A stretch of DNA of 64,000 nucleotides from an uncultured delta proteobacterium (GCA_963808235.1 CAWEEQ010000004.1:781084-845083), one strand, 5' to 3'; positions 7,406 through 50,718 are shown, counted from the first letter of the stretch. Numbers and translations: made by a program. The notes: a model not told the origin generated them from the sequence alone.

Positions 7406-10400
7406 CTATGCGTTGAGTTCGTCGAGGAGCGCCTTGGCGTCCATCAGGTCGGCAGTGTCGAAGCCCTCAGAGAACCAGTTGTAGATGTCGGCGAGCATCG
7501 CGCACGCCTCGTCGCGGCGGTCGGTACTCATCAGTATTCGCGCGAGCGAGGTCGTCGCGCGCAGTTCGAGCGATTTCGCCCCCTGCTGTCGGGCCTTCTT
7601 GATCGCGTGCTCGACCGACGCTCTCGCCAGAGCCGGATCGGAAGGACTCTGACCCAGGAGCAACTCGCCGCGAAGGCGATTAATTTCCGCTTCCCAGAAA
7701 CATTCGCCGCTGCGACGGACCAGGTCCAGGGCGTCGCCGATCGCCTTCAAACCATGCTCGATGCGTCCGGCTCTCAGGCACGAGTCGGCGAGAGTCGCGA
7801 GACTGAGCGTGAGCCACAACTCCTCTCGGTTGGCCGAAAGTGCATCGGTTTCTTCGCGTATCTGCCTTATTCCCTCCTCCGCTCTTCCAAGCTCGGTTAA
7901 GGCCCACCCTTTGACAACGCGCGCATGGCGCAGAACGTAGAGGAACCCCACGTCCTCCGCTGCGTTTATCGCGGCCCCGGCGATTTCCAGCGCAAGCTTC
8001 GGTTCCAGCATCATGCGATGAACCAGTGCCTTCTCGTACAAGGCGAAAGCTGCCGAGATGGCGTCTCCAAGTTCATTCGCAAGTGAAACGGCCCGTTCCG
8101 CGCATCGCCGCGCCGCATCGGGACGACCGCGCAGCCATGACAGCTGCGCGTCCCATGCATAGCCGCACACGGCCGGATGATGAGCGGTGTAGAGCGGGAC
8201 GGCAGCCGAACGAAGCTTCGACTCGAACAGCTTGAGCCCCCGCTCGACATGGCGTTGCGAGGCCTCCAGTTCACCTGCGGAAAGCGCCACCGACCAGTCA
8301 TGATGGATCGCCTCGAGAAGGAAAACCGGATCGGGGTGGCGATCGACGAAATCCCAGATCGGCTTCTGCCGTTCGCGGGCTCCCCTCAAGTTGCCGCCGA
8401 CGTAGAGCAGTCCAAACAATCCAACCAGTAGCGCGAACTGCTGCTCGGGTGTGGCTCCTGTCTCAGCAAGCCGCTCGGCGCGAAGATAGGCCCTCTCGGT
8501 TTCCGGCGCCGCCCACCCTTTGGTGGCCATCAGCGCGGGACCAAGGCTGGTTTGGAGCGCGAATTCGCGCCGGTCCCGCTCGGGGCTAGATGGCGTGCGT
8601 TCAAGTAATTCCAAAGCGGCGGTTAGGTTCCGCATCGCCTCGCCGTACGCCAGTCGCCGAACGGCTCGGAGACCTGCGCTTTCGAGATAGTCGAGTGCCT
8701 TCGCGGAATTTCCGCTGCGGCTGTAATGATGGGCCAGTTCGTCGAGGTAGTCGTCGATTGAATTTGCGTAGAGCCTCTCGAGAGCCGCACCGATTCGTCC
8801 ATGAAGTTGTCTGCGCCGTTCCATCAGTGCCGAGTTGTACGAGACCTCCAGTGTCAGCGCGTGCTTGAAGGTGTATTCAGAATCGCCGATGGCCGGCTGC
8901 TCGTAGATGAACTCGCCGAGCTGGAGGACATCGAGCAGCCGCCTGGTCTCGTCATCCGGGATCGAGACCACCGCGCGAATCAGCGACAGCGGAAATTCGC
9001 GGCCAATCACCGCCAGCGTCTGTAACAGGTCTTTGGCATCCTGCGGCAGGCGGTCGATGCGCGCGGCGAGAATCGCCTGAACTGTCGGCGGAATCTTCAA
9101 CGCCGCCAACGACCGCGTGAGCTTCACCGCCCCGCCGTCACGCACCAGCGCGTTCTCGTCGAACAGGACCTGCACCGTCTCTTCCATGAAGAACGGATTG
9201 CCCTCGGTCTTCTCGACAATCAGCCGCTTGAGCGGCGCGAGTTCGGTACCGTCGCCGAGCAGCGCGGACAACATCTCCTCGGCAGATTCTTTGCCCAGCG
9301 GGTCCAAGCGTAACTGAATGTAGTAGGTCTTGCTGTTCCACTGATGCGAGTACTCGGGGCGATAATTGACCAGCAGCAGGATCTTCGCCGTGCCGATGGA
9401 TTCTGCCAGCAGGTTCAAAAAGCCTTGCGTCTCCTCGTCGATCCAGTGCAGGTCCTCGAAAATCACCATCAGCGGCTGATTCATCGACTCTCGCAGCAGG
9501 ATGCGCTTGATCGCGTCGAGCGTGCGCCGCCTGCGCACCTCCCCGTCCATTTGCGCCAGCGGATCGTCGCCCTCGATAATGCCCAGCAATACGAAAAGGT
9601 ACGGCAACGTATCTTCAAGCGAACGATCGAGCGTCAAGACCTTGCCGTTGACTTTCTCGCGCCGCGTGCGCACGTCGTCATCCGAGGTGATGCGGAAGTA
9701 GCCGTGTAGCAACTCGATTGTGGGCAGATACGCAGACGCTTTCCCGTGAGAGACGGAAAAGGTCTCCAGCACCATCCAGCCCGACTGGTGCTTGGCCTTG
9801 AACTCAAAGAACAGGCGCGATTTGCCGGTGCCGGCCTCGGCCATCGCGGCGACAATCTGTCCGCGTCCAACGCGCGTGAGTTCCGACGCGTTGCGCATCG
9901 CCTCCATCTCGCGCTCGCGCCCGACGAACTTGGTAAGCCCCCGCCCCGCCGAGCGTTGCAGCCGTGTGCGCAACGGCCCGAGCCCGGTCACCTCGTAAAC
10001 ATTGACCGGCTCGGTGACTCCTTTTACTTTGGTCGGACCCAGCGGCTTGAGCTGGAAATATCCCTCGACCAGTTTGCTCGTCTGCTCACTGATCGCGATC
10101 GAGCCGGTTGGCGCGACGGCCTGCATCCGCGACGCCAGGTTGGTGGTGTGCCCAATCGGCGTGTATTCAACGTGGCCGCTGCCGGTTGAGATCGAGCGCA
10201 CGACGACTTCGCCGGTGTTCGCGCCGATGCGCGCCTCGATCGGCCTTCCACCCTCGGCCACCAGTTTGGCCGAGTAGCGTTTCAGCTCCTCCTGCATCCG
10301 CAGGCCAGCGTACAGAGCGCGCTGCGGATGGTCCTCGTGCGCAAGCGGTGCGCCGAACAGCGCGAAAATCCCGTCGCCGGTGGACTGCACGATGTATCCG

Positions 10401-10843
10401 TCGTAGCGGCGGACGGCGTCGATCATCAGCTTGAGTGCCGGATCGACGATCGCGCGAGCCTCTTCGGGATCCAAGTCCTGCTCCAACTCCGTCGATCCCT
10501 TGATGTCGGCGAACAGCGCCGTGATCGTCTTGCGCTCGCCCTCCAGATTTTCAGGGGCTGGTGTCTCAGCTACTAGAATCGGTGAGTCATTCGCTTTCTT
10601 TGCCGGGGCAGTGCCCGCGGGCGCTCCGAGCGCCGTGCCGCATTCGCCACAAAAGCGTTTGTCCGCTGGATTATCGGCGCCGCACTTCGGACAAAGATTC
10701 GCGAGCGCCGCGCCGCAATCACCGCAGAACTTCTTGCCGGCCGGATTTTCAGCTTTGCAATTCGAGCAGCGCATCGGCTTTGTCAGAAAAGATGAGCGAC
10801 TTGCCTCGTATATCACCGAGCGCGTTGAGGGACTAGCCGACAA
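7406..10843 (-). CDS. double zinc-ribbon / class III adenylate-guanylate cyclase / AAA (STAND) ATPase / TPR multidomain protein
   Basis: 1145 aa. N-terminus: CSNCKAENPAGKKFCGDCG...CPKCGADNPADKRFCGECG. Cyclase core: ERKTITALFADIKGSTEL...GDGIFALFGAP...RIGANTGEVVV. Walker A: AEAGTGKSRL. C-terminal half: TPR-like repeats. The real start may be the MRCSNCK Met at 10774. Confidence 0.85.
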   Translation of the reverse strand: MSASPSTRSVIYEASRSSFLTKPMRCSNCKAENPAGKKFCGDCGAALANLCPKCGADNPADKRFCGECGTALGAPAGTAPAKKANDSPILVAETPAPENLEGERKTITALFADIKGSTELEQDLDPEEARAIVDPALKLMIDAVRRYDGYIVQSTGDGIFALFGAPLAHEDHPQRALYAGLRMQEELKRYSAKLVAEGGRPIEARIGANTGEVVVRSISTGSGHVEYTPIGHTTNLASRMQAVAPTGSIAISEQTSKLVEGYFQLKPLGPTKVKGVTEPVNVYEVTGLGPLRTRLQRSAGRGLTKFVGREREMEAMRNASELTRVGRGQIVAAMAEAGTGKSRLFFEFKAKHQSGWMVLETFSVSHGKASAYLPTIELLHGYFRITSDDDVRTRREKVNGKVLTLDRSLEDTLPYLFVLLGIIEGDDPLAQMDGEVRRRRTLDAIKRILLRESMNQPLMVIFEDLHWIDEETQGFLNLLAESIGTAKILLLVNYRPEYSHQWNSKTYYIQLRLDPLGKESAEEMLSALLGDGTELAPLKRLIVEKTEGNPFFMEETVQVLFDENALVRDGGAVKLTRSLAALKIPPTVQAILAARIDRLPQDAKDLLQTLAVIGREFPLSLIRAVVSIPDDETRRLLDVLQLGEFIYEQPAIGDSEYTFKHALTLEVSYNSALMERRRQLHGRIGAALERLYANSIDDYLDELAHHYSRSGNSAKALDYLESAGLRAVRRLAYGEAMRNLTAALELLERTPSSPERDRREFALQTSLGPALMATKGWAAPETERAYLRAERLAETGATPEQQFALLVGLFGLLYVGGNLRGARERQKPIWDFVDRHPDPVFLLEAIHHDWSVALSAGELEASQRHVERGLKLFESKLRSAAVPLYTAHHPAVCGYAWDAQLSWLRGRPDAARRCAERAVSLANELGDAISAAFALYEKALVHRMMLEPKLALEIAGAAINAAEDVGFLYVLRHARVVKGWALTELGRAEEGIRQIREETDALSANREELWLTLSLATLADSCLRAGRIEHGLKAIGDALDLVRRSGECFWEAEINRLRGELLLGQSPSDPALARASVEHAIKKARQQGAKSLELRATTSLARILMSTDRRDEACAMLADIYNWFSEGFDTADLMDAKALLDELNA

Positions 10844-23304: not shown

Positions 23305-23757
23305 TTAAACAGACCCCGCCGGCGCAACCGTTCCGCGTATTACCAGCACCGGGCAGGCAGCTTCCCGAATGACATGCTCAGTGACGCTTCCCAGAACGAA
23401 ATGTCCGAGGCCCTTGCGCCCATGCGTAGCCATCACGATCAAGTCCACGCCGAGCTCCTGAGCAGCCCGCACGATATCAGTATCAGGCACGCCCGTTCTG
23501 ACATCGATCACATATTTCACAGCGGCCTTCACGGTCTTTCGGACTATTCGCGCGAGCCTCGCTTTCGCTTCCTTCTCCCACCGTGGCTCGGCGTCAAATG
23601 GTAGTGGCACGTCCATATCCTGGGTAGGCACTCTGGCAATGTGCAGTATGTAGAGAGTGGCATTGCTTTCTTTTGCGAGCGAGGTCGCCAAAGACAACGC
23701 AACGGTCGTATTTTCATCGAATTCGAAGGCACATAATATCTTGCTGTAATTCAGCAT
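23305..23757 (-). CDS. universal stress protein (UspA family)
   Basis: 150 aa; ILCAFEF...LYILHI...DLIVMATHGRKGLGHFVLGSVTEHVIREAACPVLVI. Confidence 0.88.
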   Translation of the reverse strand: MLNYSKILCAFEFDENTTVALSLATSLAKESNATLYILHIARVPTQDMDVPLPFDAEPRWEKEAKARLARIVRKTVKAAVKYVIDVRTGVPDTDIVRAAQELGVDLIVMATHGRKGLGHFVLGSVTEHVIREAACPVLVIRGTVAPAGSV

Positions 23758-23792: not shown

Positions 23793-25325
23793 CTAGAATT
23801 CCGCGAGCGATCGACCGGCCGCTCTATCGACCGCTGCCTTGGTCATGGAAAATCCGTAGAGGGCATCGGCGTACGCAGCATCGTCAAAAGTGTAGCTGCG
23901 CTGCGCATCTTCCAGTTCGATAATGCTTGTCAGGCCTGCTTCATAGCGCTTCTCCGCGAGTTCCAGTTCCGCATGTGAAGCAGCAAGCGTCCTTTCCGCG
24001 CGGGAGATGCGCTGAAGAGAAGCCTGCCAATTGAGAAACGCAGTACGGACCTGCAAGTTTATTTCTTGCCGCAGATCTTCGATCGCGCGCAGGATCGCGT
24101 GTTGCCGAAACCTCGTCTCCGCAATCTGGTCGGTAGTTAGAAAGCTGTTGAAGATTGGCCATGTGATCACGATCCCGACATTGAAATTATTCGCGGCAGG
24201 AGTTCCGGTCCCGAGCGCTGAGTAACCGCCCACCGCACTGGCGGTGGGATAGTAGTCACTCTGATACTCGACGATTTTCGCACCCATGGCTTTCGCCTGA
24301 TCCTGCAGCGCCTTCAAATCCGGTCTGGTTCGAAAAGCCGCGTCAAGCAACCCATTTAATGAGTCGTTGATCGGATGGTAGGTCAGGATGTCTGCTGGTT
24401 CAAACGCGGGTGCCGAGTCACTGAGACCCAGAGCATTGTCCAGCGCAACCTTTGCGTCTTCGTCATCATTACGGGCGTCGACGAGATGCAATTGAGCTCG
24501 CTCAACTTCGGCTTGCGTAACATAAGTATCGAGCTGTGGGCGCAGACCGGCGTTAGCCTTAACCTGAGCCTCGTGCAGATGATATTGACGCTGCTCCAGT
24601 GCCTTCTCGTAAACCTCGATCAGTCGTTTCGCTTGCAGCAACGCGAAGTATCGTTGCGAGACCTCGAAGATCAAATCAAGCTCAGTGAGCTGCTGATCGG
24701 CAGCCACGGCAGCAGCTTCAAACTGTCGCTCCGAAACAAATCCATGTCGGCGGCCGAAATCGACAAGAAACTGGGAGAGGCTCACGCCTCCCATGTAGTT
24801 ATTGCTGGTGTCCCAACCTTGCGAAGTATCATTCGCCGGGAGGTTGTGATTGGTTCCACTTATTCGCGGAAACGCTCCGTCCGGATTGTAGTAGCTCGCA
24901 TTGCCGATGCCATTGTCGGTGCTGCGCAAATATTGCGCGGCACCAAATAGTTGCGGACCCAGGTACGATCGCGCCTGGCCGATTTGCTCCTGAGCGGCGC
25001 TGGTGTTGTCCGCCGCTTCCTGGAGTCTCGGGTGATATTTCAGAGCGATCGCGATTGCTTCCTTGAGTGTCAATTGCGAGCCCGGCAGAATTGGTCCGGC
25101 GCTTGAGCCGGTCGGCTCGGATCGGGCCGTTTGGCTGGAAGTTGACGAGTTGATAGTTGACGCCGTCCCTAGCGACCAGCTGGTTCCTGGCCCCGGCGTT
25201 CCCGTAGCCGACGCCGCAGTTTGCGTTTCACCGAGTAGTACCTCCGCGGGGCCCGCGGCGTTAGCGACGCCATGAGCTGAGAGAAGGAGGTATGCGACAA
25301 GAAGCAGGATTCGCGAAGATTCCAT
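23793..25325 (-). CDS. TolC-family outer-membrane efflux protein
   Basis: 510 aa; signal peptide; LTLKEAIAIALKYHPRL start and two coiled-coil/beta-barrel repeats typical of OEP proteins. Confidence 0.85.
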   Translation of the reverse strand: MESSRILLLVAYLLLSAHGVANAAGPAEVLLGETQTAASATGTPGPGTSWSLGTASTINSSTSSQTARSEPTGSSAGPILPGSQLTLKEAIAIALKYHPRLQEAADNTSAAQEQIGQARSYLGPQLFGAAQYLRSTDNGIGNASYYNPDGAFPRISGTNHNLPANDTSQGWDTSNNYMGGVSLSQFLVDFGRRHGFVSERQFEAAAVAADQQLTELDLIFEVSQRYFALLQAKRLIEVYEKALEQRQYHLHEAQVKANAGLRPQLDTYVTQAEVERAQLHLVDARNDDEDAKVALDNALGLSDSAPAFEPADILTYHPINDSLNGLLDAAFRTRPDLKALQDQAKAMGAKIVEYQSDYYPTASAVGGYSALGTGTPAANNFNVGIVITWPIFNSFLTTDQIAETRFRQHAILRAIEDLRQEINLQVRTAFLNWQASLQRISRAERTLAASHAELELAEKRYEAGLTSIIELEDAQRSYTFDDAAYADALYGFSMTKAAVDRAAGRSLAEF

Positions 25326-25385
25326 TGTTAGCTCACCCGCCTGTTCGGCGATCTATTTCGTGTTGACCCCCTTGGCTAGTTCAGA

Positions 25386-26594
25386 TCAGTCGGAGCTTTG
25401 AACTGGCGCCGACTTAGTCTGCACATCCCGGTTCTCTATCCTACAATCAACTGGGACTCCCGGAGTGAGAGTGCTGCTATAGGTCGTCACTACCAGCGAC
25501 TTCGCCGACACCCCCGAGGTTACCTCTACATAAGCGCCGTTGTTGATCCCCGTTTTAGCCGGAACTTCGGCAAGACGGCCGTTGTCTACAATCAATAGGC
25601 GCGCTGAGCCTCCCGATCCCTGAATCGCTGAGGCCGGTACACTCAGAGCGTCAGGATGCCGGATCAGTTCGATGCTGACGTGCGCATAGCTTCTCGGATA
25701 GATCAGGCGGTTCGGATTATCTATGTCGACCTCAGTCAGCATTGTGCGAGTTGCGAGATCGAGCGACGACGCATACCTGGCGACGATGCCATTGAAGACT
25801 CGGCCAGGAAATTCGTCGAAGTGCAGCATCGCCGGGGTGCCACGATGGATGAACGGATATGAAGCCTCCGGAACGTAGATATAGACTCGTAATTTATCTA
25901 TGTCGGCGAGCGTCAGGATCGGGCCGCCACCCTCGCGATGCCCTCCGGCGCCCTCAGTAGCTCCTGGGGAAATCAACCCCGAGGTTTCGTCAACTCCAAG
26001 GTCACCGCCGCCGGCGCGGATCAGAGCCCCGGGATCGGCGAATCGCCCAGTGATTACTCCATCGAAGGGCGCGATGATTTTTGTATATGAGAACATAGTC
26101 TGCAGGGTTGCAACCGCGGCTTGAGCCTCACGATACTTGGCATAAGCCATGTCGACGTCTTGCTGCGATATCAGCCGTGAGTCACTCTGCTGGACCTTCT
26201 TCAAACGATCATAAGTTATGCGCTCGATTTCGAGGCTAGCCTGCGAGCGCGTTAGGTTCGATTGCAGTTCCGGTACTTCGATTTCGGCCAGCACCTGACC
26301 GGTCTTGACCGAGTCGCCCTTGTCCACGCTGATACTCTTCAAGTATCCGGTGACTTTCGAATGAAGAGCAGCCTCGTAGAAGCCCACAACGTCGCCTGGG
26401 AGTTCGATACTTTTGTCTATTTCTCCACGGCGTGGATATACAACGTTCACTATCGGTCGTTGAGTCGTAGTCATGGGCGTGACAGGCGTGTCGCAGCCGC
26501 TCGTGCATAAAACGACGATCGATAAGATAGTCGTTACTGCCCAGCCTAAACCCCTCACTGTCGTTTGCTCCCCGGGAACTAGTAGCATGGACAT
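25386..26594 (-). CDS. efflux RND periplasmic adaptor (membrane fusion protein)
   Basis: 402 aa; lipobox LCTSGC; biotinyl-lipoyl-like GDSVKTGQVLAEIEVPEL plus hairpin and beta-barrel segments. The ATG shares one base with the RND stop (ctgATG). Confidence 0.85.
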   Translation of the reverse strand: MSMLLVPGEQTTVRGLGWAVTTILSIVVLCTSGCDTPVTPMTTTQRPIVNVVYPRRGEIDKSIELPGDVVGFYEAALHSKVTGYLKSISVDKGDSVKTGQVLAEIEVPELQSNLTRSQASLEIERITYDRLKKVQQSDSRLISQQDVDMAYAKYREAQAAVATLQTMFSYTKIIAPFDGVITGRFADPGALIRAGGGDLGVDETSGLISPGATEGAGGHREGGGPILTLADIDKLRVYIYVPEASYPFIHRGTPAMLHFDEFPGRVFNGIVARYASSLDLATRTMLTEVDIDNPNRLIYPRSYAHVSIELIRHPDALSVPASAIQGSGGSARLLIVDNGRLAEVPAKTGINNGAYVEVTSGVSAKSLVVTTYSSTLTPGVPVDCRIENRDVQTKSAPVQSSD

Positions 26595-29500
26595 CAGCCT
26601 CGGTCCTCATTCGGCGTCTGCACGGCCGCTGCCCGTTCGATCCGCCGATAGAAGAACTCGTAAATGCAAGGGACGAGAAACAATGTAAGTACGGTGGACA
26701 CCGCAAGACCGCCCACCGCGGCCCTTGCCAGGGGAGCCGAAGCTTCTGATCCCTCGCCGAGCTTCAACGCGATCGGCATAAGACCAGCCACCGTGGCCAA
26801 GGCGGTCATCAGGATTGGCCGCATTCTTATGCGGGCGGAATCGATCGCCGCGCGTCTTAGCTCATGTCCCTGGCGGCGTCGTTCATTGGCGAAGTCGACG
26901 AGCAAAATCGAATTCGACACAACGATACCGACCATCACGATGATCCCCATGAACGATTCTATGTTGAGTGTGGTTCCTGTCGCCCACAACGTCCAGATGA
27001 CGCCTATCAATCCCATCGGGACCGCGAACATGATGATGAAGGGGTCCAGGAAAGACCGAAATTGAGCCACCATCACCAGGTAAAGTAGAACGACCGCCAG
27101 CGAGAGACCGAAGCCGAAGCTCGAGAAAGATTTCTGCATCGAGCTTACGGCGCCGCGGTACCTGACGGAGACGCCCGGAGGGAGAGTCATCTTGCTCACC
27201 TCGCGCTGGATTTTCTCCTGCGTGCCACCCAGATCCTGGGTGCTGGGTGCGACGAGCAGATCGACAATCCGCTGAATGCTGTAATGATCTGCTTCGGAAG
27301 GGTGGGATTCGGGAGCAATAGACGCCACATCACGCAGCAAAAGGCTCTGCGCGTGTCCCGTTTCCTTGTTCACAGTCTCGATAGGGATGTTTTGCAGCAC
27401 CTCCAGAGAATCAAAGCCATTCTGGGCGCCTAGGTACTGCACCGTCAGAAAGTAGTCGTCCTTGTTTGCGCGATCGATCCAGATCGATGGTTTAATGTAC
27501 AGGTTTGAATCGAGCGCGGTGATGACGTTCTGAATGACTTCCTGCTGCGCTACGCCCAAACGCGCCGCTCTCACGCGGTCGACCTTGATGTTTAGTGTCG
27601 GATAGTCCAATTCCTGGGCGATGAAGCTCTGCGAAACTTGAGAGAGGGCGTTGATTCTCGCTTGAAGTTCCTTCGCCGCATTATGCAACTCGGTAAAGCT
27701 ACTACCGGCAAATTCGACATCGATGGGAGCTATCTTCCCGAGATTGAGAACGGAGTCGATTATGCTGCCTGAGGAAAACAGGGTACGGGCGTTCGGCAGT
27801 TGTATAGGGAGCAGTTGCTTCAACCGGGCTACATAGTATTGGGTCGGATGTCGGTGACCGGACTTGAGCGCCACCTGCATGAAACCTGAATCCTGGGCCG
27901 AGTTAGGCGAGTAAATCGCCGATATGCTGGGGGCAATTCCGATATTCGAAACGACCATGTCGAGCTCGTCCGGCGGAATCACCTTTCTGACAAGGTCTTC
28001 GATTCGACGCGCCATATCGGTGGTCAGTTCAATACGAGTACCGGCTGGCGCGCGAAAATTGATCGTGAACATTCCCGCATCGGTCTCCGGAAACAACTCG
28101 GTACCGAGACGTGGATACATCGCGAGACTTACGACGAACAGAATCGTAACCCCCACGATGACCACAGACTTGTGGTCCAGCGCATTTTCAAGAAGACGCT
28201 CGTAAGCGGAGGCAAAGCGCTCATACGCGCGATTGAAGATCGCGAACACCCCGGAAGATTCGCCGTGCTCCGCCGCGAGCGCCTGTTCGCGGGTGAGAAA
28301 ACGAGCACAGTAGATCGGTATTACGCTCATCGCGACCAGATACGACGCGGCCATCGATAGCACCACCGCCAGCGCCAGCGCACTAAACAGGTACTTCGAG
28401 ACTCCAAACAGAAACATGACCGGGAAGAAGACGATGCAGGTGGTAACGGTCGACGCCAGAACCGGTAGCGCGACCTCCTCGGCCCCATCACGTGCTGCAG
28501 CGTGCGGTTCCTTGCCTTCGGCAAGATGACGGTTGATGTTCTCGAGGACAACCACCGAGTCATCGACTAGTCGGCCGATCGCAAGCGCGAAGCCTCCAAG
28601 GGTCATGATGTTCAGCGTCGAGCCATTGAAGTATAGACCGAATGCCCCTGCCAGAATGGAAAGTGGAATCGAAAGAAAAATCGCAAAGGTCGATCGGAAG
28701 CTGCCGAGAAATATAAGAATCATGAGCGAGGCCAGAACTGCACCGGATATGGCCTCATGTTCGAGACTATCTACCGCCTGTCTGACGTAGATGGACTGGT
28801 CTAGTATGGTCTTCAGTTTCATCCCGGCTGGCAGGCCGAAAACGTTTGGAATCAGTTGCTTGACGCCATCCACCACCGAAATGGTATTGGCGCCGGCTTG
28901 GCGAAGAACCGGGATGTATACCGACGGTTGCCCGTTAATCAGCACCGTATTGTATTGAATCTGAGCAGAGTCTGTGACCTTACCGACATCATCCATCAGC
29001 ACGGGGGCCTGACCACGTCCTATCTTCACTGGCACCTGGTTAATATCGGGCACCTTTTCGATCAAGCTGTTCGAATAGATGTAGTAATCCTTGGATCCGA
29101 TCTTGACGTCGCCTGCGGGCAAGATGACGTTGGACGTGTCGAGCGCACTGACAACGTCCATTAGCGACAGGCCACGCGCTTGCAGCGCTTGCGGATTTGC
29201 GTATGCCATCACCTGTCGAAACTTGCCGCCGAAGGGAATCGGTACCGACGCGCCCGGCACCGTCGCCAGCTGATTGCGAACGTTGTAGCGGGCTTGATCC
29301 TCGAGTTGCGTCTCGTTGTAACCTTTACCTCCGAGCGTGACCAACACCACCGGCAGAGATGATGCGTCGTACTGCAGCACCAGCGGCGGGAGCGTCCCCG
29401 GCGGCAGAACCCCGAGATCGGCCTCCGCCAAGGTTCCCATCTGCGCGGCGGCAGCCGCAACGTCGGTGCCCGGCTGAAAGAACACTTTGATGATGCTCAC

Positions 29501-29755
29501 ACCCGACAGCGAACGCGACTCGATATGCTCAATGTTGCTGCCCAACGTAAAGAATCGCTCGTAGCGAAAGGTGATGTTGTCTTCCATGTCGAGCGGCGGC
29601 ATGCCCTGGTAAAAGGTAGCCACCACAACCGCTGGGATTTTAATGTCCGGAAAGATGTCCACCGGCATCTGCGTAAACGCCGTTGCACCCAGAATCACGA
29701 TGATCAGCGCTCCGACAATGATTAGGTACGGATTGCGCAGCGAGAAACTTGGCAC
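26594..29755 (-). CDS. efflux RND transporter permease (AcrB/CzcA superfamily)
   Basis: 1053 aa; 12-TM, two-large-loop organisation; GGFALAIGRLVDDSVVVLENI motif. Confidence 0.92.
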   Translation of the reverse strand: MPSFSLRNPYLIIVGALIIVILGATAFTQMPVDIFPDIKIPAVVVATFYQGMPPLDMEDNITFRYERFFTLGSNIEHIESRSLSGVSIIKVFFQPGTDVAAAAAQMGTLAEADLGVLPPGTLPPLVLQYDASSLPVVLVTLGGKGYNETQLEDQARYNVRNQLATVPGASVPIPFGGKFRQVMAYANPQALQARGLSLMDVVSALDTSNVILPAGDVKIGSKDYYIYSNSLIEKVPDINQVPVKIGRGQAPVLMDDVGKVTDSAQIQYNTVLINGQPSVYIPVLRQAGANTISVVDGVKQLIPNVFGLPAGMKLKTILDQSIYVRQAVDSLEHEAISGAVLASLMILIFLGSFRSTFAIFLSIPLSILAGAFGLYFNGSTLNIMTLGGFALAIGRLVDDSVVVLENINRHLAEGKEPHAAARDGAEEVALPVLASTVTTCIVFFPVMFLFGVSKYLFSALALAVVLSMAASYLVAMSVIPIYCARFLTREQALAAEHGESSGVFAIFNRAYERFASAYERLLENALDHKSVVIVGVTILFVVSLAMYPRLGTELFPETDAGMFTINFRAPAGTRIELTTDMARRIEDLVRKVIPPDELDMVVSNIGIAPSISAIYSPNSAQDSGFMQVALKSGHRHPTQYYVARLKQLLPIQLPNARTLFSSGSIIDSVLNLGKIAPIDVEFAGSSFTELHNAAKELQARINALSQVSQSFIAQELDYPTLNIKVDRVRAARLGVAQQEVIQNVITALDSNLYIKPSIWIDRANKDDYFLTVQYLGAQNGFDSLEVLQNIPIETVNKETGHAQSLLLRDVASIAPESHPSEADHYSIQRIVDLLVAPSTQDLGGTQEKIQREVSKMTLPPGVSVRYRGAVSSMQKSFSSFGFGLSLAVVLLYLVMVAQFRSFLDPFIIMFAVPMGLIGVIWTLWATGTTLNIESFMGIIVMVGIVVSNSILLVDFANERRRQGHELRRAAIDSARIRMRPILMTALATVAGLMPIALKLGEGSEASAPLARAAVGGLAVSTVLTLFLVPCIYEFFYRRIERAAAVQTPNEDRG

Positions 29756-29859
29756 GATGCAAACTCCCTGTCACCGGCGAAGTGATTACGCCGGTGGACT
29801 TTGACTTGACTATAACCGCCCGCGAATATCGGGCGCGTGTTAGCGAATCTGAAGTTTGC

Positions 29860-30225
29860 TTACAGCGGGTCTTGGCTTTCCGCGCGCGAGGGGAGCAATT
29901 TGAATCGTCTTATGAATGGCTGTACGGAAGGAGTCGCGAATCTGAACCTCGGTAAGGGCCTCACGGCCAGGTTGTCCGATACCGACGTCAAGTACTTCGG
30001 GAATGAAACATCAAGCGCTTGAGAGCCGGAATCGAGGTCGGGCTGACTTGACGAGGCCTTGGTGAATCTCTGTGCACCGCTAAGCCTATTCTGCTCGCAC
30101 GATCCGCAAGACACGCGAAAGTGTGGAACCTGCAATCGAGGGGTGAAGGCCACGATGCTCGTCACGATGAGAACCGCGGCAACCAGTTGCAGATGTAGAC
30201 GAGAAAACATTACTCCGACGCTCAT
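29860..30225 (-). CDS. hypothetical small exported protein upstream of the RND gene (weak call)
   Basis: The ORF is open to 30303. The internal Met at 30225 gives MSVGVMFSRLHLQLVAAVLIVTSIVAF (signal/anchor-like). No recognisable domain and a weak RBS. Confidence 0.25.
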   Translation of the reverse strand: MSVGVMFSRLHLQLVAAVLIVTSIVAFTPRLQVPHFRVSCGSCEQNRLSGAQRFTKASSSQPDLDSGSQALDVSFPKYLTSVSDNLAVRPLPRFRFATPSVQPFIRRFKLLPSRAESQDPL

Positions 30226-30419
30226 CTTATCGTTCCGCATTTTCGAATGCAAAGCGGAAGAATCTTTCCGCGTCTCGCGAAGATTTCCGCATTCGGCAGA
30301 CAACGTTTATTGCAGTCTGCCCTCTCGTTCAATCACGCCAGGAGCAGGTGCCAACTTTGCGGCGTATGATGTATACGTCGTGAAGCTTTTCAGAGACGCG
30401 AGTCCGAGCGCTGGGCCGG

Positions 30420-30875
30420 ATGCCCTTATTCAAGAAAATTCTTTGTCCTCTCGATTTCGATCAGAATTCGCTTCTGGCGCTCCAGGTTGCGACCGAACTG
30501 GCGCGGGAACGCAAAGCGACCCTCGATTTGCTGCACGTCGTCTCGATACCTTCCGGACCCGAGGTTGCGTTACCCTTCGCCAAAATGGAGAAGGCCGCAC
30601 GAACCAGGCTTGAGCGGCTGGCGGGCCAAAAAATAGGCAGCAAAGTCTCCCATCGCGTCGACGTATCGATGGGCGATCCGGCCGCCGAGATCATTCATAC
30701 CGCGAAAAAGTTGGATACCGATCTTATTGTGATGGCAACCCACGGACGGAAAGGACTCCGTCACCTTGTGCTGGGAAGCGTAGCCGAACGCGTGGTGCGG
30801 GAAGCCCCGTGCCCGGTGCTCGCGATCAAGTCGAAAGCTCCGGCCGCGAAGATCAAAAGACCTCGATCGAAATAA
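30420..30875 (+). CDS. universal stress protein (UspA family)
   Basis: 151 aa; ILCPLDF...DLLHVV...DLIVMATHGRKGLRHLVLGSVAERVVREAPCPVLAI; paralog of 23305-23757. Confidence 0.88.
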   Translation: MPLFKKILCPLDFDQNSLLALQVATELARERKATLDLLHVVSIPSGPEVALPFAKMEKAARTRLERLAGQKIGSKVSHRVDVSMGDPAAEIIHTAKKLDTDLIVMATHGRKGLRHLVLGSVAERVVREAPCPVLAIKSKAPAAKIKRPRSK

Positions 30876-31153
30876 TTCGCTGTATGACGTCACAGCTCAA
30901 ACGGTCGAAATCCTCGCGGTCGTCGCGAAATCAGAACTGTCGCGCTTTCCGCGGTTGGCAGAGAGGGCCAGGGGATCGAAATCTGGTTAAATTCAAGCCA
31001 TGAGCGGTGATGAAGGGAATATGGGGATCCGCCAAAAGGGTTTCACTGATACAAGAGCAATAATGAGGCTGCTTAAGGCTTGACTAATTTCTTGTCTTGC
31101 TCCATAGTGATGCTGCCACCGAAAGGGCGGGCAAAAACGGGGAAGGTAGGATA

Positions 31154-31399
31154 ATGCAACGATCACGAGAAAATGATGAGACTCAGCCGGAATTCTATAC
31201 TGTCGGCCAGCTCGCGGACTTGCTCCAACTGACGCCGATGACGATATACCGGATGGTCAGACGCGGCGAGCTCGCCTGTCATGCGATCGGGCGAATCAAA
31301 CGCTTTCGCCGCGGCGACGTAGAGACGTTCCTCGAGAATTCCAGGCAGCCGGCCTCGGAAGCCACCGCGGCTCCGGCTCCTCGCCGTCTCGATGGCTGA
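31154..31399 (+). CDS. excisionase-family (HTH_17, MerR-superfamily) DNA-binding protein, paralog 1
   Basis: 81 aa from the ATG at 31154 (AGGTAGG upstream); FYTVGQLADLLQLTPMTIYRMVRRGELACHAIGRIKRFRRGDVETFL. Confidence 0.8.
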   Translation: MQRSRENDETQPEFYTVGQLADLLQLTPMTIYRMVRRGELACHAIGRIKRFRRGDVETFLENSRQPASEATAAPAPRRLDG

Positions 31400-31663
31400 A
31401 GACTCTCGGCGAATAAGTTCCAGCAGCCCCTGAGATTACCGCTACTTCCTGAGCGCTCGCGGGTCAGTACGCGTTCGTGCCCGGCGGTAATTTTTCCCCC
31501 AGCTCTTTCCTCAAAACAGATTCTGCGAACGAGTGTAACCACCAGTACAAACTGGTTGCAGGGAAGAGTCGCGTCTATAGAAGATGGAGGGCGAGCATTG
31601 TAGAAGCTTGACAGGAGCGTTGCATTCCCAAAGGATAGCGCAGCAGTCGATTACGGGGGAAAA

Positions 31664-31882
31664 ATGCAACGCTCACGTCCGAAAGAAGACGCCCAGCCCG
31701 AGTTCTACACCGTTGGACAACTTGCCGATTTGCTGCAACTCACACCCATGACCATTTACCGCATGGTCAGGCGCGGCGAGTTGGCTTGTCACGCGATCGG
31801 TCGCATCAAGCGTTTCAGACGCGGCGATGTCGAGGCTTTTTTACAAAGCTCGAGGAAACCAGCGGCAAGCGCACCAAGCTAA
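31664..31882 (+). CDS. excisionase-family (HTH_17) DNA-binding protein, paralog 2
   Basis: 72 aa. The core is identical in protein sequence to paralog 1 except for one residue. Confidence 0.8.
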   Translation: MQRSRPKEDAQPEFYTVGQLADLLQLTPMTIYRMVRRGELACHAIGRIKRFRRGDVEAFLQSSRKPAASAPS

Positions 31883-32115
31883 GACTTGCTCGTCTTACGC
31901 TCGGCGCCTGAATCGCCGTTGGTTTGGTGTTCCGGTTCCCTGGCTACGCTCCCGCCCGCCGCGACCCATTGATCGACGACTGGCACTTCAAAGCGCAGAT
32001 CCCGTCCAACTCTAATAGCCCGCAACTGGCCTCTTCGCACCAGCCTGCGAACGGTAGCCGGATTGACATGCAGGTAGTCGGAAACCTCACGCAATGTGAG
32101 CATCCTTGCTGGCAT
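31879..32115 (-). CDS. excisionase-family (HTH_17) DNA-binding protein, third copy, convergent
   Basis: MLTLREVSDYLHVNPATVRRLVRRGQLRAIRVGRDLRFEVPVVDQWV. The start is uncertain (32115, 32103 or 32160). Its stop codon overlaps the stop of 31664-31882. Confidence 0.7.
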   Translation of the reverse strand: MPARMLTLREVSDYLHVNPATVRRLVRRGQLRAIRVGRDLRFEVPVVDQWVAAGGSVAREPEHQTNGDSGAERKTSKS

Positions 32116-32355
32116 ATGCTCGCCCCTGGCTGACTCCATTCGACCCGGATTCATCCGCAAGCTCGCAAAAGTCTCATCAGGTTTGTCCTCGCCGTTTCGG
32201 TGACCGGAGGTGGCCGGAGGTCTCTAAATCTATTTGACTGTCTAATGCGCATTATCATTCAAATTACTTGACGACGACTCATCTATTGCTTGATGACCAT
32301 CATCTGCTTTCTCAAACGTAGCAAGATTTCAAAGACTAATCAAGCCATGAAAATA

Positions 32356-32384
32356 TTGTCAAGTTAAGATAAAGCTGTTAGAAT
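32356..32384 (+). promoter_or_regulatory. candidate sigma70 promoter of the EPS locus
   Basis: TTGTCA (32356-61), 17-nt spacer, TAGAAT (32379-84), inside a 360-bp AT-rich tract about 140 nt upstream of the Wza-like ATG. Confidence 0.4.
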
Positions 32385-32526
32385 TCTAAAGCGTGGCATC
32401 TTTATTTACTTTATTTTATGTCTCATTGCTTTGTTTATTCTTTTATGGTACAGTCTTACATAGCGTGCATCCCTTACGATTCATGCGTCGAATCGCGTAC
32501 TGACCTGAGCAGTGAGAAAAAAAACC

Positions 32527-33252
32527 ATGAAACGAAAACTATTGGTCATAGCTCTTCTGTGTTGTGCGCAGCTTCTGTTCGGATGCTCCGCGAAGGACCC
32601 GGAGGCTACCGATATCAAGGGTGTGTCGATGGCGCCGGTGTCGCCTGCCTGCCAATTCACTTCGGTCGACGACCAGTTTCGATCATACCGGATTCAGCCG
32701 GGCGACCAGCTCGACATCAGTTTTTATATGAGCCCCGAGTTTGACCAGGACCTGACCGTACGACCCGACGGCGACATCTCGATGCCGGTGGTCGGCAATA
32801 TTCACGTGCAGGGACTAACCCCGGTCGGGCTCGAGAAGAATCTCAATCAGCTCTATTCGCAGGAGTTGAAAGATCCGAAGACCACGGTCCGCATCGACAA
32901 GAGTCCAAGCCAGGTCGTGTACGTCGAGGGCCAGGTTGGCAAACCCGGCGCGGTGCCGCTGCAGCCCGGGATGACCGCGATCCAGGCGATCGCCGCGTCG
33001 GGCGGAATGAACGATAACGCCGGACCGAGCCGGGTGATTCTCATAAGACGCGACGCGTGCGGGAACGCGCACGGGCAGCCTCTCAAGCTCGACAAAGTGC
33101 TGAACCAGAAAAATAACGAAGAAGATGTGGCGCTGCTGCCTTCGGACATCGTGGTCGTACCGCGCAGCGGGATTGCCCAATTCGATCTCGACGTGAAGCA
33201 GTACGTGCGCGACGCGATGCCGGTCGAAGTCTACGCCGCGCCGCCATTTTGA
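32527..33252 (+). CDS. polysaccharide export outer-membrane lipoprotein (Wza/OPX family)
   Basis: MKRKLLVIALLCCAQLLFGCS lipobox. Poly_export motif: YRIQPGDQLDISFY...VRPDGDISMPVVGNIHVQGLT. SLBB-like: VYVEGQVGKPGAVPL. Confidence 0.85.
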   Translation: MKRKLLVIALLCCAQLLFGCSAKDPEATDIKGVSMAPVSPACQFTSVDDQFRSYRIQPGDQLDISFYMSPEFDQDLTVRPDGDISMPVVGNIHVQGLTPVGLEKNLNQLYSQELKDPKTTVRIDKSPSQVVYVEGQVGKPGAVPLQPGMTAIQAIAASGGMNDNAGPSRVILIRRDACGNAHGQPLKLDKVLNQKNNEEDVALLPSDIVVVPRSGIAQFDLDVKQYVRDAMPVEVYAAPPF

Positions 33253-33262
33253 GCCGAGTGGG

Positions 33263-34786
33263 ATGAATCAGATGAACAACGAAGCTGTAATGCAGTGGAT
33301 AGAGAAGATATTCCGGCGCCGGGCGTTGGCGCTCCGGATAGGCCTGCTGGTCTTCGGCGTAATCGCGCTGGGCTCGATCATGTGGCCCCCGAGCTACGCG
33401 TCGTCGTCGAAAATCCTGGTTCAATCCAACCGCGCGCAACTGCTGGTCTCGCCCGGGCTGAAGGAAGACGCCGCCAATCAATCGACCCAAACGGTTCCGG
33501 TGGCGGAGCAGGACCTCAACTCGGAGGTCGAGCTGCTGACCAGTCCGTTCCTTATTAAGCAGGCGCTCGCGGGGATGAAGCTCAATCAACGCAAGGGCGG
33601 CGTGATCGCGGGAATGCGAAACATTGTCGACGCGGTCGTCAGCGTCCCGACAGACGTGTACACGGTGCTGCACGGAGGCCCCAGCGCGACTGCGAACCAG
33701 GACGAGATTCAGAAAATCGTGAATCATCTCAGCGCGGACGTGATCAAGCGCTCGAATGTTATCGAGGTTTCGATTGTCTCGCACGATCCCGCGTGGGCGA
33801 AAGCGTTTCTCTCGCAATTGATGACTTCATACCTGAACCTGCACGGGCAGTTGTCGCAGAATCCGCAGGCGCAGGCATTTTTCCAGCAGCAGCGCGCGCT
33901 GCTCGATCAGCGCCTCCAGGACTCAGAGAAGGAGTTGCGCGCGGCGCAACTGCAGACCGGAATCGCTCAATTCAGCGAGCAGCAGCAGGCGCTCATCAAC
34001 CAGGTGTCCGCCGCCGAGGCGAACTATCGCACCACCAGCGCCTCTCTGGATTCCAAGCTGCAGCAGATCAGGAGCCAGGAAGCCGAGTTGAAGCAGACTC
34101 CGCAGCGTCAGACCAAGGAATCGAAGTCGGTCCAGAACATGGCGCTCAGCCAGTTGAAGCCGCAGATGCTTCAACTCGAAACCGAGCGTGCCGAGTTGTT
34201 GAGCCGCTATCAGCCCACCAGCGAGAGAATCCGTGCGATCGACGCCAAGCTGAAAGCCGGCCAAATCATCCTGAGCCGCGAAGATAAGACCAACGTCCAG
34301 GAAACCACCACCGATGTGAATCCGACCTGGCAGGCGCTCGATGCCGATTTGGCCAAAGCGCGGGCCGAAGCCGCGTCGGATAAGGCGGCGCAGACCACTG
34401 AAGCGGCGCAAGTCGCAACGTTACAGAATCAGCTCAAACAGATGACCACGGATGGAGTCGAGATCGAACGCCTGCAGCGCAAAGTCGATAGCGACAAGGA
34501 AGCGTACATGTCGTACGTGCGCAAGGGCGAGGAGGCCCGCGCGGCCGAGGCTCTTAACCAAAGCCGGATCCTGAACGTGAGCGTGGTGCAGGATCCGACC
34601 ACTCCGATCGATCCGGTGTCGCCGCGAATCCGGTTGAATCTGATCGCCGGGCTCCTGTTTGCCCTGATGCTGGCGGTCGCCGCGGCGCACTGGACCGAGG
34701 AATACGATCCCAAGATTTGTTCGACCGCGTCGATATTCAAGGACACCGGGCTCAGCACGGTCGCGATCCTCGACGACAGGTTGTAG
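33263..34786 (+). CDS. polysaccharide chain-length determinant (PCP/GumC-like, no kinase domain)
   Basis: 507 aa; N-terminal TM followed by YASSSKILVQ (Wzz-type), a long Gln/Ala-rich coiled coil, and a C-terminal TM (LNLIAGLLFALMLAVAAA). Confidence 0.8.
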   Translation: MNQMNNEAVMQWIEKIFRRRALALRIGLLVFGVIALGSIMWPPSYASSSKILVQSNRAQLLVSPGLKEDAANQSTQTVPVAEQDLNSEVELLTSPFLIKQALAGMKLNQRKGGVIAGMRNIVDAVVSVPTDVYTVLHGGPSATANQDEIQKIVNHLSADVIKRSNVIEVSIVSHDPAWAKAFLSQLMTSYLNLHGQLSQNPQAQAFFQQQRALLDQRLQDSEKELRAAQLQTGIAQFSEQQQALINQVSAAEANYRTTSASLDSKLQQIRSQEAELKQTPQRQTKESKSVQNMALSQLKPQMLQLETERAELLSRYQPTSERIRAIDAKLKAGQIILSREDKTNVQETTTDVNPTWQALDADLAKARAEAASDKAAQTTEAAQVATLQNQLKQMTTDGVEIERLQRKVDSDKEAYMSYVRKGEEARAAEALNQSRILNVSVVQDPTTPIDPVSPRIRLNLIAGLLFALMLAVAAAHWTEEYDPKICSTASIFKDTGLSTVAILDDRL

Positions 34787-34791
34787 CCGAT

Positions 34792-36375
34792 ATGTATTAC
34801 GAACACTTCAGACTTAGCGGCGCTCCCTTCGAGTTCAATCCCTCGGCGTCGGTGCTCTTCATGAGCGCGGGGCATCGCGAAGGATTGGCGGCGCTCGAGT
34901 GGGGACTGTCCGAGCCGAGCGGATTCACGATGCTGGTCGGCGAGATCGGGACCGGCAAGACCACGCTCATCTACTCGCTGCTCGCGACGCGGCATCAGGG
35001 CGTCCGGACCGCGTGGGTGGCGAATCCGCGCTTAAGCTTCGAAGACATGATGCGCCAGATTTTGGGCCAGCTGGGCGCAGTTGCGCCGGAGACGTCGGGC
35101 AAGCTCGCGCTGCTGCAGGCGTTCGACGCGCAGCTCGCGAGCCATGGGCTCGAAGAGTGCGTGGCGGTGATTGTCGACGAGGCGCAGGACCTGAGCGACG
35201 ACGCGCTGGAAGATCTGCGCCTGTTGACCAACTTTCAATCGCTCGAGCGCAGACGCCTGCAAATAGTGCTGGTCGGTCAGCTCGATCTCGCCAGAAGGCT
35301 GGGGCGGCCGCAACTGCGCCAACTGAATCAGCGAATCGGTGCGCGCGCGCTGTTGCCGACTCTGCAGGACCGGGAGATTTACGACTACGTCGAATACCGG
35401 CTGCGCTCGCGCGGCGGAGATATCGAGAACCTGTTCACGCGGAGCGCGATGCGGGAGCTCGCGCGCGCGAGCGGCGGAATCCCGCGGCGGATCAACATGC
35501 TTTGCCACAACGCGATGCTGCAGGCATACGCGGACGGCGAGCAATTCGTCGCCGAAAAGCATGTGCGTGCCGCCGCCAGCGACTACGATAATTTGCTGGT
35601 CGGCAAAGATTCGGCGTCCGCGAAGATGGCCGCATCGGCGAGCGCGGCGATGCAATCCGCGAGCACAAAGATACGGTCGGCGAGCGCGTCGATGCATTCA
35701 TCGGCGGTCTCGATGGCGCCGGCGATGCGTTCGGGCGCGACCAAGGCGGTTCGCGCGTTGAGCGCGGCGGCAACATTCGGGGCGCTGAGCTTGCTCGGCG
35801 TAGCGGTAGTCGGATTTTGCGAGATGCAGCCGGTGCACAATGATCTTTCCGCGCTGGTCAGGAAATTCGAATCGAAAGCGGCGAGTTTCAGAAGGCCAAT
35901 CGTGGTGCAGCGGGCGCCGGCGCAGTTCGTGACCGGTTCGTCCCCGGCGACCGTTCCGGCGCCGAACACAATTGGTTCGGCTCCAGCGGCCGTTCATGAC
36001 AGCACCGCCCCGGGCGCCCACGAATTGAGTACGCGCGGACACCTCAGGGGTCTTTCGGCGACTGGCCGGCGGGTTCCAGTCAAGCCGCAACCTGAAGCGA
36101 GCGCCGTTCCCAATATTTTGCCGGTGACGTTGTCGCCGGTCGGAAATATTTCCGCATCTCCGGATTCTTCGACGAAACCAGATGACGGCGCCTTGCGCAC
36201 CGACTCGACCATTTTGGTCAGGGCGGGCGACTCGCTCAGCAAGATAGCGATGAGAATCTATGGTTCGTTCGGAGCCGATGAAGTTAAGCGATTGACCGCG
36301 GCGAATCCGCAAATCAAGGACGCGAACGTGATCTATCCCGGTCAGTCTATTCACGTGCAGCAAGCTACCAAATGA
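34792..36375 (+). CDS. ExeA/GspA-like AAA ATPase with TM segment and C-terminal LysM domain
   Basis: MYYEHFRLSGAPFEFNP...GFTMLVGEIGTGKTTL (Walker A), VIVDEAQ (Walker B), TM AATFGALSLLGVAVVGF, LysM ILVRAGDSLSKIAMRIYG...NPQIKDANVIYPGQSIHV. Confidence 0.8.
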   Translation: MYYEHFRLSGAPFEFNPSASVLFMSAGHREGLAALEWGLSEPSGFTMLVGEIGTGKTTLIYSLLATRHQGVRTAWVANPRLSFEDMMRQILGQLGAVAPETSGKLALLQAFDAQLASHGLEECVAVIVDEAQDLSDDALEDLRLLTNFQSLERRRLQIVLVGQLDLARRLGRPQLRQLNQRIGARALLPTLQDREIYDYVEYRLRSRGGDIENLFTRSAMRELARASGGIPRRINMLCHNAMLQAYADGEQFVAEKHVRAAASDYDNLLVGKDSASAKMAASASAAMQSASTKIRSASASMHSSAVSMAPAMRSGATKAVRALSAAATFGALSLLGVAVVGFCEMQPVHNDLSALVRKFESKAASFRRPIVVQRAPAQFVTGSSPATVPAPNTIGSAPAAVHDSTAPGAHELSTRGHLRGLSATGRRVPVKPQPEASAVPNILPVTLSPVGNISASPDSSTKPDDGALRTDSTILVRAGDSLSKIAMRIYGSFGADEVKRLTAANPQIKDANVIYPGQSIHVQQATK

Positions 36376-49884: not shown

Positions 49885-50718
49885 ATGAAGCGGCTCAGAC
49901 GCCCAAGAAAGCGAATTTTGGATGCTTCCGCCAGTCCGCCGGTGGAAAAGCCCTTGGAAATTCAGGCCCTTTTGAAGCTCTTTCCGACCCTCGAATCCGA
50001 AAAACTCAAACGGCTGGCCGGCGAGATGTCGTTGGTGCGATTCAAACGAGGCGATCGCATTCGCGTCGACACCCAGTCATCGACGGACGTACTGGTGGTT
50101 TTGAAGGGAGCGATCGCGATCACCTGGCAGCACGACAGCCGCCATCAGGTGCTGGTCACGATGCTCGCGCCGGGAGAAATGTACGCGGTTTCCACGCTGC
50201 TACCCGAGATGGCGCAAGGCCTGAAAGGCTGCGCATTCACCAGCAGCCTGGTAGCGACGATCGATTCGAAGAGGCTGGTGGAGATAGTTCTCGGCGTCGG
50301 GCTGGGAGCGTTCAAATCAGCGATGGAAATGACGGTTGGATGGTCGGCCGAAACGCTCATGCGATACATCAAGATGTTTCACATGGCGCCGCGCGATCGT
50401 CTAGTCATTGCGCTGATCGAGATGGGCGCAAAGTTCGGCGTGCGTGACTCGAGAGGCCTCATTCTGAATTTGCCGATGACTCAGAAGGACCTGGCCAACC
50501 TGCTGGGCGCATCGCGGCAAAAGGTCAACGCATACCTGGGCGAACTGGTGCGCATGGGAGCGGTGATCAATCTGAGCCGGCAGATCGTTCTGGTTCCGGA
50601 CAAGCTATTCGCGTTGGTCGGCGATCCCGATGTCCATTACTACAGCGCGCCGCACAAGCATTCGGTTGCCAAACCGCACGACCTCTCGTCGCATTCAAGA
50701 CGCGAGATGCATCTCTAA
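49885..50718 (+). CDS. Crp/Fnr-family transcriptional regulator
   Basis: cNMP-binding-like beta-roll (FKRGDRI...VLKGAIAI) and C-terminal HTH TQKDLANLLGASRQKVNAYLGELVRMGAV. Confidence 0.8.
   Translation: MKRLRRPRKRILDASASPPVEKPLEIQALLKLFPTLESEKLKRLAGEMSLVRFKRGDRIRVDTQSSTDVLVVLKGAIAITWQHDSRHQVLVTMLAPGEMYAVSTLLPEMAQGLKGCAFTSSLVATIDSKRLVEIVLGVGLGAFKSAMEMTVGWSAETLMRYIKMFHMAPRDRLVIALIEMGAKFGVRDSRGLILNLPMTQKDLANLLGASRQKVNAYLGELVRMGAVINLSRQIVLVPDKLFALVGDPDVHYYSAPHKHSVAKPHDLSSHSRREMHL

Follow-up and report, generated by a model that had tools for sequence, protein, structure and literature searches.

Two ancient HTH_17 paralogs with a near-invariant DNA-binding core at a polysaccharide locus of uncultured Binatia

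We analyzed a 64,000-nucleotide stretch of DNA (the window) in which two neighboring genes, A and B, encode small HTH_17 proteins at the edge of a large EPS cluster. Comparison with related loci showed that the duplication giving rise to A and B is older than the divergence of the sampled Binatia lineages and that purifying selection has held the 49-residue DNA-binding core of both copies near-invariant. Taken as a whole, the best explanation, which we consider probable, is that A and B are ancient paralogs belonging to a Binatia-specific, minimal MerR-like subfamily of polysaccharide loci. Judged from the loci compared, the subfamily is a constant part of polysaccharide-biosynthesis loci. The features are listed in Table 1.

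Table 1. Features of the window and positions of gene D in related loci.
Feature	Position	Strand	Description
A promoter	31080-31108	+	TTGACT (31080-31085), 17-nt spacer, CATAGT (31103-31108)
Gene A	31154-31399	+	81-aa ORF, HTH_17 / excisionase-family winged helix, A-type tail (VETFLENSRQPAS...)
A-B spacer	31400-31663		264 bp
B promoter	31608-31636	+	TTGACA (31608-31613), 17-nt spacer, AAGGAT (31631-31636)
Gene B	31664-31882	+	72-aa ORF, HTH_17 paralog, B-type tail (VEAFLQSSRKPA...)
Gene C	31879-32160	-	93-aa ORF, third HTH_17 protein
EPS promoter and 5' leader	32426-32526	+	TTGCTT (32426-32431), 17-nt spacer, TACAGT (32449-32454)
EPS leader conserved element	32485-32501	+	GCGTCGAATCGCGTACT; form across loci GCGTCG(G/A)ATCGCGTACT
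Wza-like exporter	32527-33252	+	Pfam, NCBIfam
Chain-length determinant	33263-34786	+	Pfam, NCBIfam
ExeA-like AAA ATPase with LysM	34717-36375	+	Pfam, NCBIfam
Gene D, L001	6340-6672	-	orphan gene
Gene D, L003	6238-6573	-	orphan gene
Gene D, L014	8474-8770	-	orphan gene
Gene D, L021	2689-3018	-	orphan gene
Gene D, L022	218-547	-	orphan gene
Gene D, L016	8612-8929	-	orphan gene

The Pfam model HTH_17 (PF12728, cut-off 27 bits) recognized A, B, and C with scores of 50.2, 51.7, and 43.3 bits, respectively, over profile positions 1-50/51. The excisionase-family DNA-binding domain model TIGR01764 (cut-off 28.8 bits) gave 45.3, 45.0, and 42.0 bits. Protein C shared only about 39% identity with A and B. 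According to the ORFs, the A and B proteins both begin with MQRSR and have QPEFY in common, while residues 6-10 and the C-terminal tails differ, as the first-pass annotation of this DNA had reported. That annotation had also placed the pair directly upstream of the EPS leader, but gene C intervenes, convergent with B and divergent from the EPS operon. The conserved start of C is probably the ATG at 32139, and N-terminal conservation was seen among C orthologues. The stop codons of B (TAA, 31880-31882, +) and C (CTA, 31879-31881, -) overlap, and just a few bases separate the two gene ends in the relatives examined. The sole terminator-like hairpin for B (31902-31918) falls within the 3' end of C. 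Overlap between the B and C transcripts is to be expected and would open the way to antisense or transcriptional interference. For comparison, a database search returned 129 relatives with 63-96% identity, nearly all of them metagenomic, and genome and metagenome scans gave about 25 loci, of which the informative ones came from Binatia/Binataceae MAGs.

The cores of A (31190-31333) and B (31700-31843) were compared codon by codon. The results indicated that 31 of the 48 codons differed, with 30 synonymous changes and one replacement, reproducing exactly the numbers of the first-pass annotation. The sole replacement was ACG (Thr) against GCT (Ala) at codon 46, corresponding to Thr58Ala. At the nucleotide level, the 48-codon cores differed at 35 of 144 positions (24%). 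A formal dN/dS estimate by the Nei-Gojobori method on the 49-codon core yielded a pS of 0.90, at which dS is undefined (saturated), and a pN of 0.036. The nd value was 4.0, above the single amino-acid replacement actually seen; in our reading, the surplus came from the averaging of equally weighted multi-step codon paths, such as CGC/AGA. When 36 substitutions were placed at random in 20,000 trials, the mean number of amino-acid changes was 22.8 and the minimum was 14. The single residue change between A and B was thus far beyond chance, because random substitutions never gave fewer than 14 changes.

Silent divergence of this extent might itself have been selected, that is, one copy might have been recoded to keep the two direct repeats, 510 bp apart, from homologous recombination or gene conversion. 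Among all pairs, the one in the window did share the smallest fraction of codons (0.33) at the greatest protein identity (48/49), and same codons were on average slightly less frequent within genomes (A-B mean 0.48) than between genomes (0.51; permutation P = 0.05). However, that permutation test rested on genomes that are phylogenetically non-independent, and the within-genome values reached 0.67 in other genomes. In relatives, the copies lie about 1 kb apart and are still saturated. For the window pair, the same codon was used at 15 of the 46 informative identical-residue positions, against 18.3 ± 3.2 expected at complete saturation, a difference that was not significant (P(≤15) = 0.19). The expectation was modeled as two independent draws from a codon-usage table built from 36 long ORFs of the window. 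The silent sites were therefore fully randomized, yet not demonstrably over-diverged, and we regard selected recoding as improbable.

The gene order A(+)-D(-)-B(+)-C(-)-Wza-Wzz-ATPase was conserved in relatives according to tblastn mapping. Genes A and B held fixed syntenic slots in about 12 loci, with B orthologues always immediately before C, and the position of C orthologues was shared by all relatives. Upstream of A, the flank was variable, encoding Usp in the window, a beta-helix protein in L001, and acyl-CoA dehydrogenases in L014; thus A is the outermost gene of the conserved EPS block. Locus L014 carried a Crp/FNR-family gene (9573-10319, -) and a partial extra B (10469-10609, +) between B and C, and a Crp-family gene is also found inside the EPS cluster of the window (49885-50718, +). 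Crp-type regulators may be another recurring part of these polysaccharide loci.

In L001-L004, L006-L008, L014, and L021, A and B were separated by gene D, which runs on the opposite strand. Gene D encodes a protein of 105-111 aa with the motif C..C(L/V)(K/R)CS..(R/K)..S(H/Y)RF..F..FGR.P..(D/E)ELFF, and no match to D was obtained in Pfam, NCBIfam, or PDB sequences. In each related locus, D converged on the A-type gene, and it also lay beside a distant subfamily member; D is a possible partner of the HTH proteins. In the window, tblastn with D detected nothing anywhere, and neither blastn nor six-frame translation revealed a D remnant in the A-B spacer. The spacer from about 31400 to 31570 had no counterpart in relatives and occupies the position where D and the D promoter block lie elsewhere, and from about 31571 (about 95 nt upstream of B) it was homologous to the B promoter region of relatives. 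Since D lies between A and B in every relative, the adjacency in the window is derived by deletion of D, and the tandem arrangement first described is unique among the loci examined so far. The A protein of the window ends in RRLDG (31385-31399), and its closest orthologues (L014 8250-8273 and L017 1130-1169) end in RR(L/F)DS(A/V)LDD. The comparison suggests that the A C-terminus was shortened by the deletion that also took D. Given the truncated end of A and the spacer without D, a single deletion may have removed the last A codons, D, and the D promoter block, with predicted edges at about 31393 (left) and 31570 (right).

The AF2 model of A (mean pLDDT 75, core 83-91) was predicted to adopt an alpha1-alpha2-beta1-beta2-alpha3 arrangement (H17-24, H28-37, E43-45, E48-52, H53-63). 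This is a MerR-like winged-helix topology, matching BldC, Xis, RdfS, RacA, and MerR N-domains. The best PDB matches to A were BldC (6AMA/6AMK), Pukovnik Xis (4J2N), RdfS (8DGL), and RacA. BldC of Streptomyces, a 68-aa single-domain MerR-like winged-helix-turn-helix protein with the same topology as A (Schumacher et al. 2018, PMC5859096), was the best match by both sequence and structure. The match was nevertheless weak, with a sequence E-value of 0.004 (the sole meaningful sequence match), a Foldseek E-value of 5e-3, and 24% identity. With the BldC family model NF033787 (cut-off 77 bits), A and B gave no match at E ≤ 0.01 and C scored 26.2 bits; therefore, A and B are BldC-like in architecture and lie outside the curated BldC family. 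Like BldC, they have neither a dimerization nor an effector domain and are chromosomal regulators rather than mobile-element factors. BldC differs in being a single-copy pleiotropic developmental regulator of Actinobacteria, whereas here two or three paralogs are tied to an EPS locus in Binatota.

Structural work has reported that BldC is monomeric and lines up head-to-tail on direct repeats, that its Arg30 reads guanine, and that its wing lies in the minor groove (PMC5859096). Arg30 and the wing Gly44 of BldC align with the invariant R33 and G46 of the A/B family. The head-tail interface positions of BldC include L11, F21, V23, W31, I40, and L43 (PMC5859096), and these align with F14, L24, L26, M34, C42, and I45, all of which are invariant or near-invariant in the A/B family. 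These conserved hydrophobic residues could be mere fold-core residues. In addition, BldC His46 is replaced by Ile48, and the Glu16-Arg22 salt bridge is replaced by Gln/Gln. For A and B, head-to-tail binding of the BldC kind is a possibility. Pukovnik Xis and RdfS share with A the Pfam/TIGRFAM domain and the fold, with an rmsd of 1.1-1.4 Å over about 50 residues, and such phage and ICE excisionases oligomerize on DNA. Unlike them, A and B have no partner integrase or mobile-element context, and their EPS synteny is conserved across a bacterial class.

MerR-fold proteins do not all work on DNA: CbpM and DafA act through protein-protein contacts. The fold search also returned CbpM (3UCS) and DafA (9DVI), with probabilities of 0.85-0.96, and it is conceivable that A and B act mainly by contacting other proteins, such as D or the EPS machinery. 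The retention of D as a convergent neighbor of family members, including a distant subfamily, and the conserved acidic RRFDSxLDD end on many A-type tails would fit this reading. Against it, both the Arg with which BldC contacts bases and its wing Gly are kept without change in A and B, the domain is very basic, and the window has no D, yet A and B are intact. We hold little belief in such a mainly protein-binding role and favor DNA-binding regulators.

The 49-aa core was near-invariant in all recovered A and B orthologues (about 20 Binatia loci), with the consensus PEFYTVGQLA(D/E)LLQLTPMTIYRMVRRGELACHAIGRIKRFRRGDVE(T/A)FL, and likewise among 120 database clusters, of which 55 were A-type and 35 B-type. 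A-type tails (ENSRQPAS..., often with an RRFDSxLDD end) were conserved, as were the short B-type tails (VEAFLQxxR+P..., Q(K/S/R)xR(R/K)P...). Identity of orthologues to the window proteins was 84-91% for A, 79-91% for B, and 64-86% for C. For unsaturated orthologue pairs, omega was 0.00-0.14 for A and 0.014-0.14 for B. A neighbor-joining tree recovered reciprocal A and B clades with bootstrap values of only 52% and 34%, which are modest because the sequences are short, and the A+B clade was monophyletic relative to the next subfamily in 200/200 bootstraps. Collectively, the fixed slots, the reciprocal clades, the invariant core, and the low omega point to an old duplication with strong purifying selection on both copies, which is the first of two explanations offered by the first-pass annotation. 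The second, that B (or A) is a xenolog, namely a family member gained by horizontal transfer rather than an in-situ duplicate, was not supported and is very improbable. Its one point of support was that at silent sites window A was no nearer to window B than to other family members, with window B the most divergent. However, orthologue comparisons were equally saturated at silent sites and thus give no signal of foreign origin, in about 12 Binatia loci a B-type gene sits between D and C, A and B are monophyletic as above, and their GC3 values are alike (0.61 and 0.67).

More distant relatives were found in other settings. Other polysaccharide clusters, with genes for GT2, deacetylase, Wzy, GT4, and UDP-glucose dehydrogenase, carry members with 65-68% identity (P0106, P0101) at their end, and D-like genes lie nearby. 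In L012, a tandem pair (8001-8261 / 8766-9023; EFYTV..QLADLLQLTEMTIYRMVNR..LPCY) had 50 of 56 identical core residues and the same codon at 24 of 48 informative positions. By this comparison, the L012 pair, from a sister subfamily, is an independent duplication, and the retention of duplicates recurs in the family. Relatives with 47-49% identity belong to other subfamilies and occur in toxin-antitoxin (PIN-like toxin) or transposon/transposase contexts.

Each copy has its own promoter, as indicated by conservation in orthologous loci. The -35 boxes described by the first-pass annotation proved real and conserved, although its coordinates were one base off (Table 1). The A promoter scored 9/12 in a sigma-70 consensus scan, and 8 orthologous loci kept GGCTTGACT and (A/C)ATAGTG with unchanged spacing; a GGAAGG Shine-Dalgarno-like sequence is conserved 5' of the A ATG. 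The B promoter was missed by the scan because its -10, AAGGAT, is weak, keeping A2 and T6. Its pattern AAGCTTGACA...ATTCnC..AAGGATAG was conserved in 7 loci, and the G-rich Shine-Dalgarno-like sequence of B (GGGGGAAAA) was also conserved. The A and B promoters are unlike each other, and each is conserved across orthologous loci. Together with the conserved Shine-Dalgarno-like sequences, this gives indirect support to the idea that A and B are regulated independently, and probably differently. These data also bear on whether one copy is redundant and decaying, or unexpressed. A survey of copy number showed that both genes are kept in about 12 loci, but B was lost in L008 and L020 and looked degraded (frameshifted) in L034, so B is dispensable in those lineages; in the window, A has a shortened C-terminus and B a weak -10. 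On the other hand, both window ORFs are intact, omega does not exceed 0.14 in either lineage, and promoters and Shine-Dalgarno-like sequences are conserved for both genes, which makes decay of either copy highly improbable.

Downstream of C, the EPS cluster extends to about 60 kb and is of a large Wzx/Wzy type. Its further products include a kinase-like ATPase, sugar-modifying enzymes, a priming glycosylphosphotransferase, a flippase, a GT4 glycosyltransferase, a Wzy-like polymerase, a deacetylase, a Crp-family regulator, UppS, and beta-helix/Big_7 proteins. XrtA/PEP-CTERM models were the best for the first three EPS genes, but all scored below cut-off (TIGR03027, 121.6 against 180; TIGR03007, 100.6 against 278.9; TIGR03015, 208.3 against 324.5 bits), and no exosortase was present among the ORFs scanned; the priming transferase model TIGR03025 was passed (342 against 295.6). 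An XrtA/PEP-CTERM exopolysaccharide locus was therefore rejected in favor of a related EPS cluster of the Wzx/Wzy type. The EPS leader lies inside an AT-rich stretch (GC 0.33). In a 14-locus alignment, it showed 75% mean column identity with an invariant TTGCTT, and the encoded proteins were only about 70-80% identical. Its predicted RNA structure consisted of just a 5-bp hairpin with one compensatory change, giving no support for a riboswitch-like structure in the leader, and an Rfam scan of 29800-33000 at E ≤ 1 returned no family, just chance-level microRNA matches. The conserved leader may serve as an operator for a protein.

Immediately upstream of the HTH/EPS block is a Usp/RND efflux region, in which two Usp paralogs (30420-30875, + and 23305-23757, -; 48% identical) flank an RND efflux operon (23793-29755, -); a TetR gene is also among the neighbors. 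No integrase or recombinase was detected within 12 kb upstream of A or in the EPS cluster, and no tRNA gene adjoins the A/B pair, the nearest lying about 8 kb upstream behind the efflux genes. A recombination directionality factor was accordingly rejected, with Usp, RND efflux, TetR, and EPS genes as neighbors and stable synteny. The MADS defense protein MAD1 was also rejected: scores with NF047737 were 33.7-35.9 bits, far below the cut-off of 80, the PADLOC mad1 matches (26-32 bits) covered the HTH only, and the window showed none of the other MADS genes. That A and B are excisionases, or defense or toxin-antitoxin HTH proteins, of a mobile element unrelated to EPS is scarcely credible, since the TIGR01764 and weak MAD1 matches, the structural likeness to Xis and RdfS, and the PIN-like toxin or transposase genes beside the 47-49% relatives are outweighed by the low MAD1 score, by a surrounding 12 kb free of integrase, recombinase, or att-like context, and by chromosomal EPS synteny that is stable across many genomes.

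If A and B are DNA-binding paralogs of the polysaccharide locus, their identical recognition helix and wing lead us to expect that they read the same DNA sites. By analogy with BldC, phage Xis, and RdfS, they may assemble side by side on site arrays, possibly as mixed oligomers, and they would differ in the timing of their production, set by the promoters, and in tail contacts. Conserved synteny suggests that A, B, and the divergent paralog C likely control the adjacent EPS operon and probably one another; regulation of EPS by the three proteins is inferred from this synteny. A domain in which almost all residues are needed for DNA contact, packing, or contact between protomers would account for the near-invariance.

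Candidate operators were also considered. No repeat motif was common to the A, B, and EPS promoters and conserved across loci, and no conserved direct-repeat array of the BldC type was found around these promoters. A CTTGAC-type motif in the A and B promoters and upstream of EPS coincided with the -35 boxes and was only partly conserved in the EPS region, so it does not define an operator. An inverted repeat between the B promoter spacer (31610-31626) and the B start (31663-31679; 17 nt, 88% complementary) was attributed to chance because the complementarity neither persists nor co-varies in relatives. The direct repeat cttgaYgac...catct at about 32270-32310 (acttgacgacgactcatct / gcttgatgaccatcatct; about 21-nt period) is not a conserved operator because it reflects a window-specific insertion of about 21 nt (32262-32310) that is absent from all relatives. 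Likeness between the EPS leader element and the HAIGRIKR coding sequence was at chance level, with 19 comparable inverted pairs in 1.6 kb. A literature search on Binatia/Binatota EPS regulation and on excisionase-family EPS regulators returned nothing relevant.

A more elaborate and rather unlikely possibility is that A, B, C, and D form an undescribed Binatota polysaccharide regulatory module, in which A and B, alike in their DNA-reading heads but not in tails and promoters, would form mixed head-to-tail oligomers of the BldC kind on shared sites and the A:B ratio would set EPS expression. In such a module, D and convergent B/C transcription would modulate EPS expression, and the independent tandem duplicates of L012 would reflect selection for two-subunit arrays.

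In summary, A and B, read as ancient paralogs, are uncharacterized minimal MerR-type regulators of the BldC/Xis-like kind, and as it stands they reveal no new mechanism. The kind of regulator is already known; what is unusual is the clean signature of purifying selection and the conserved EPS link in an uncultured phylum. As in other duplicated transcription factors with an identical DNA-reading head, divergence between A and B is confined to the promoters and terminal tails, but they are unusual among such duplicates in keeping 48 of 49 residues identical at complete silent saturation, with near-invariant orthologues. They thereby provide a clean natural example of a domain kept in two copies through complete silent-site turnover, and the constraint on its 49 residues spans a whole class of uncultured bacteria. 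To our knowledge, the Binatia belong to a phylum without cultured members. The conserved arrangement flags A, B, and C, together with D in relatives, as the likely control region of the main Binatia polysaccharide-export locus. If the proteins were expressed heterologously, the binding sites of A, B, and C might offer a first entry point to EPS and biofilm regulation in these soil bacteria.
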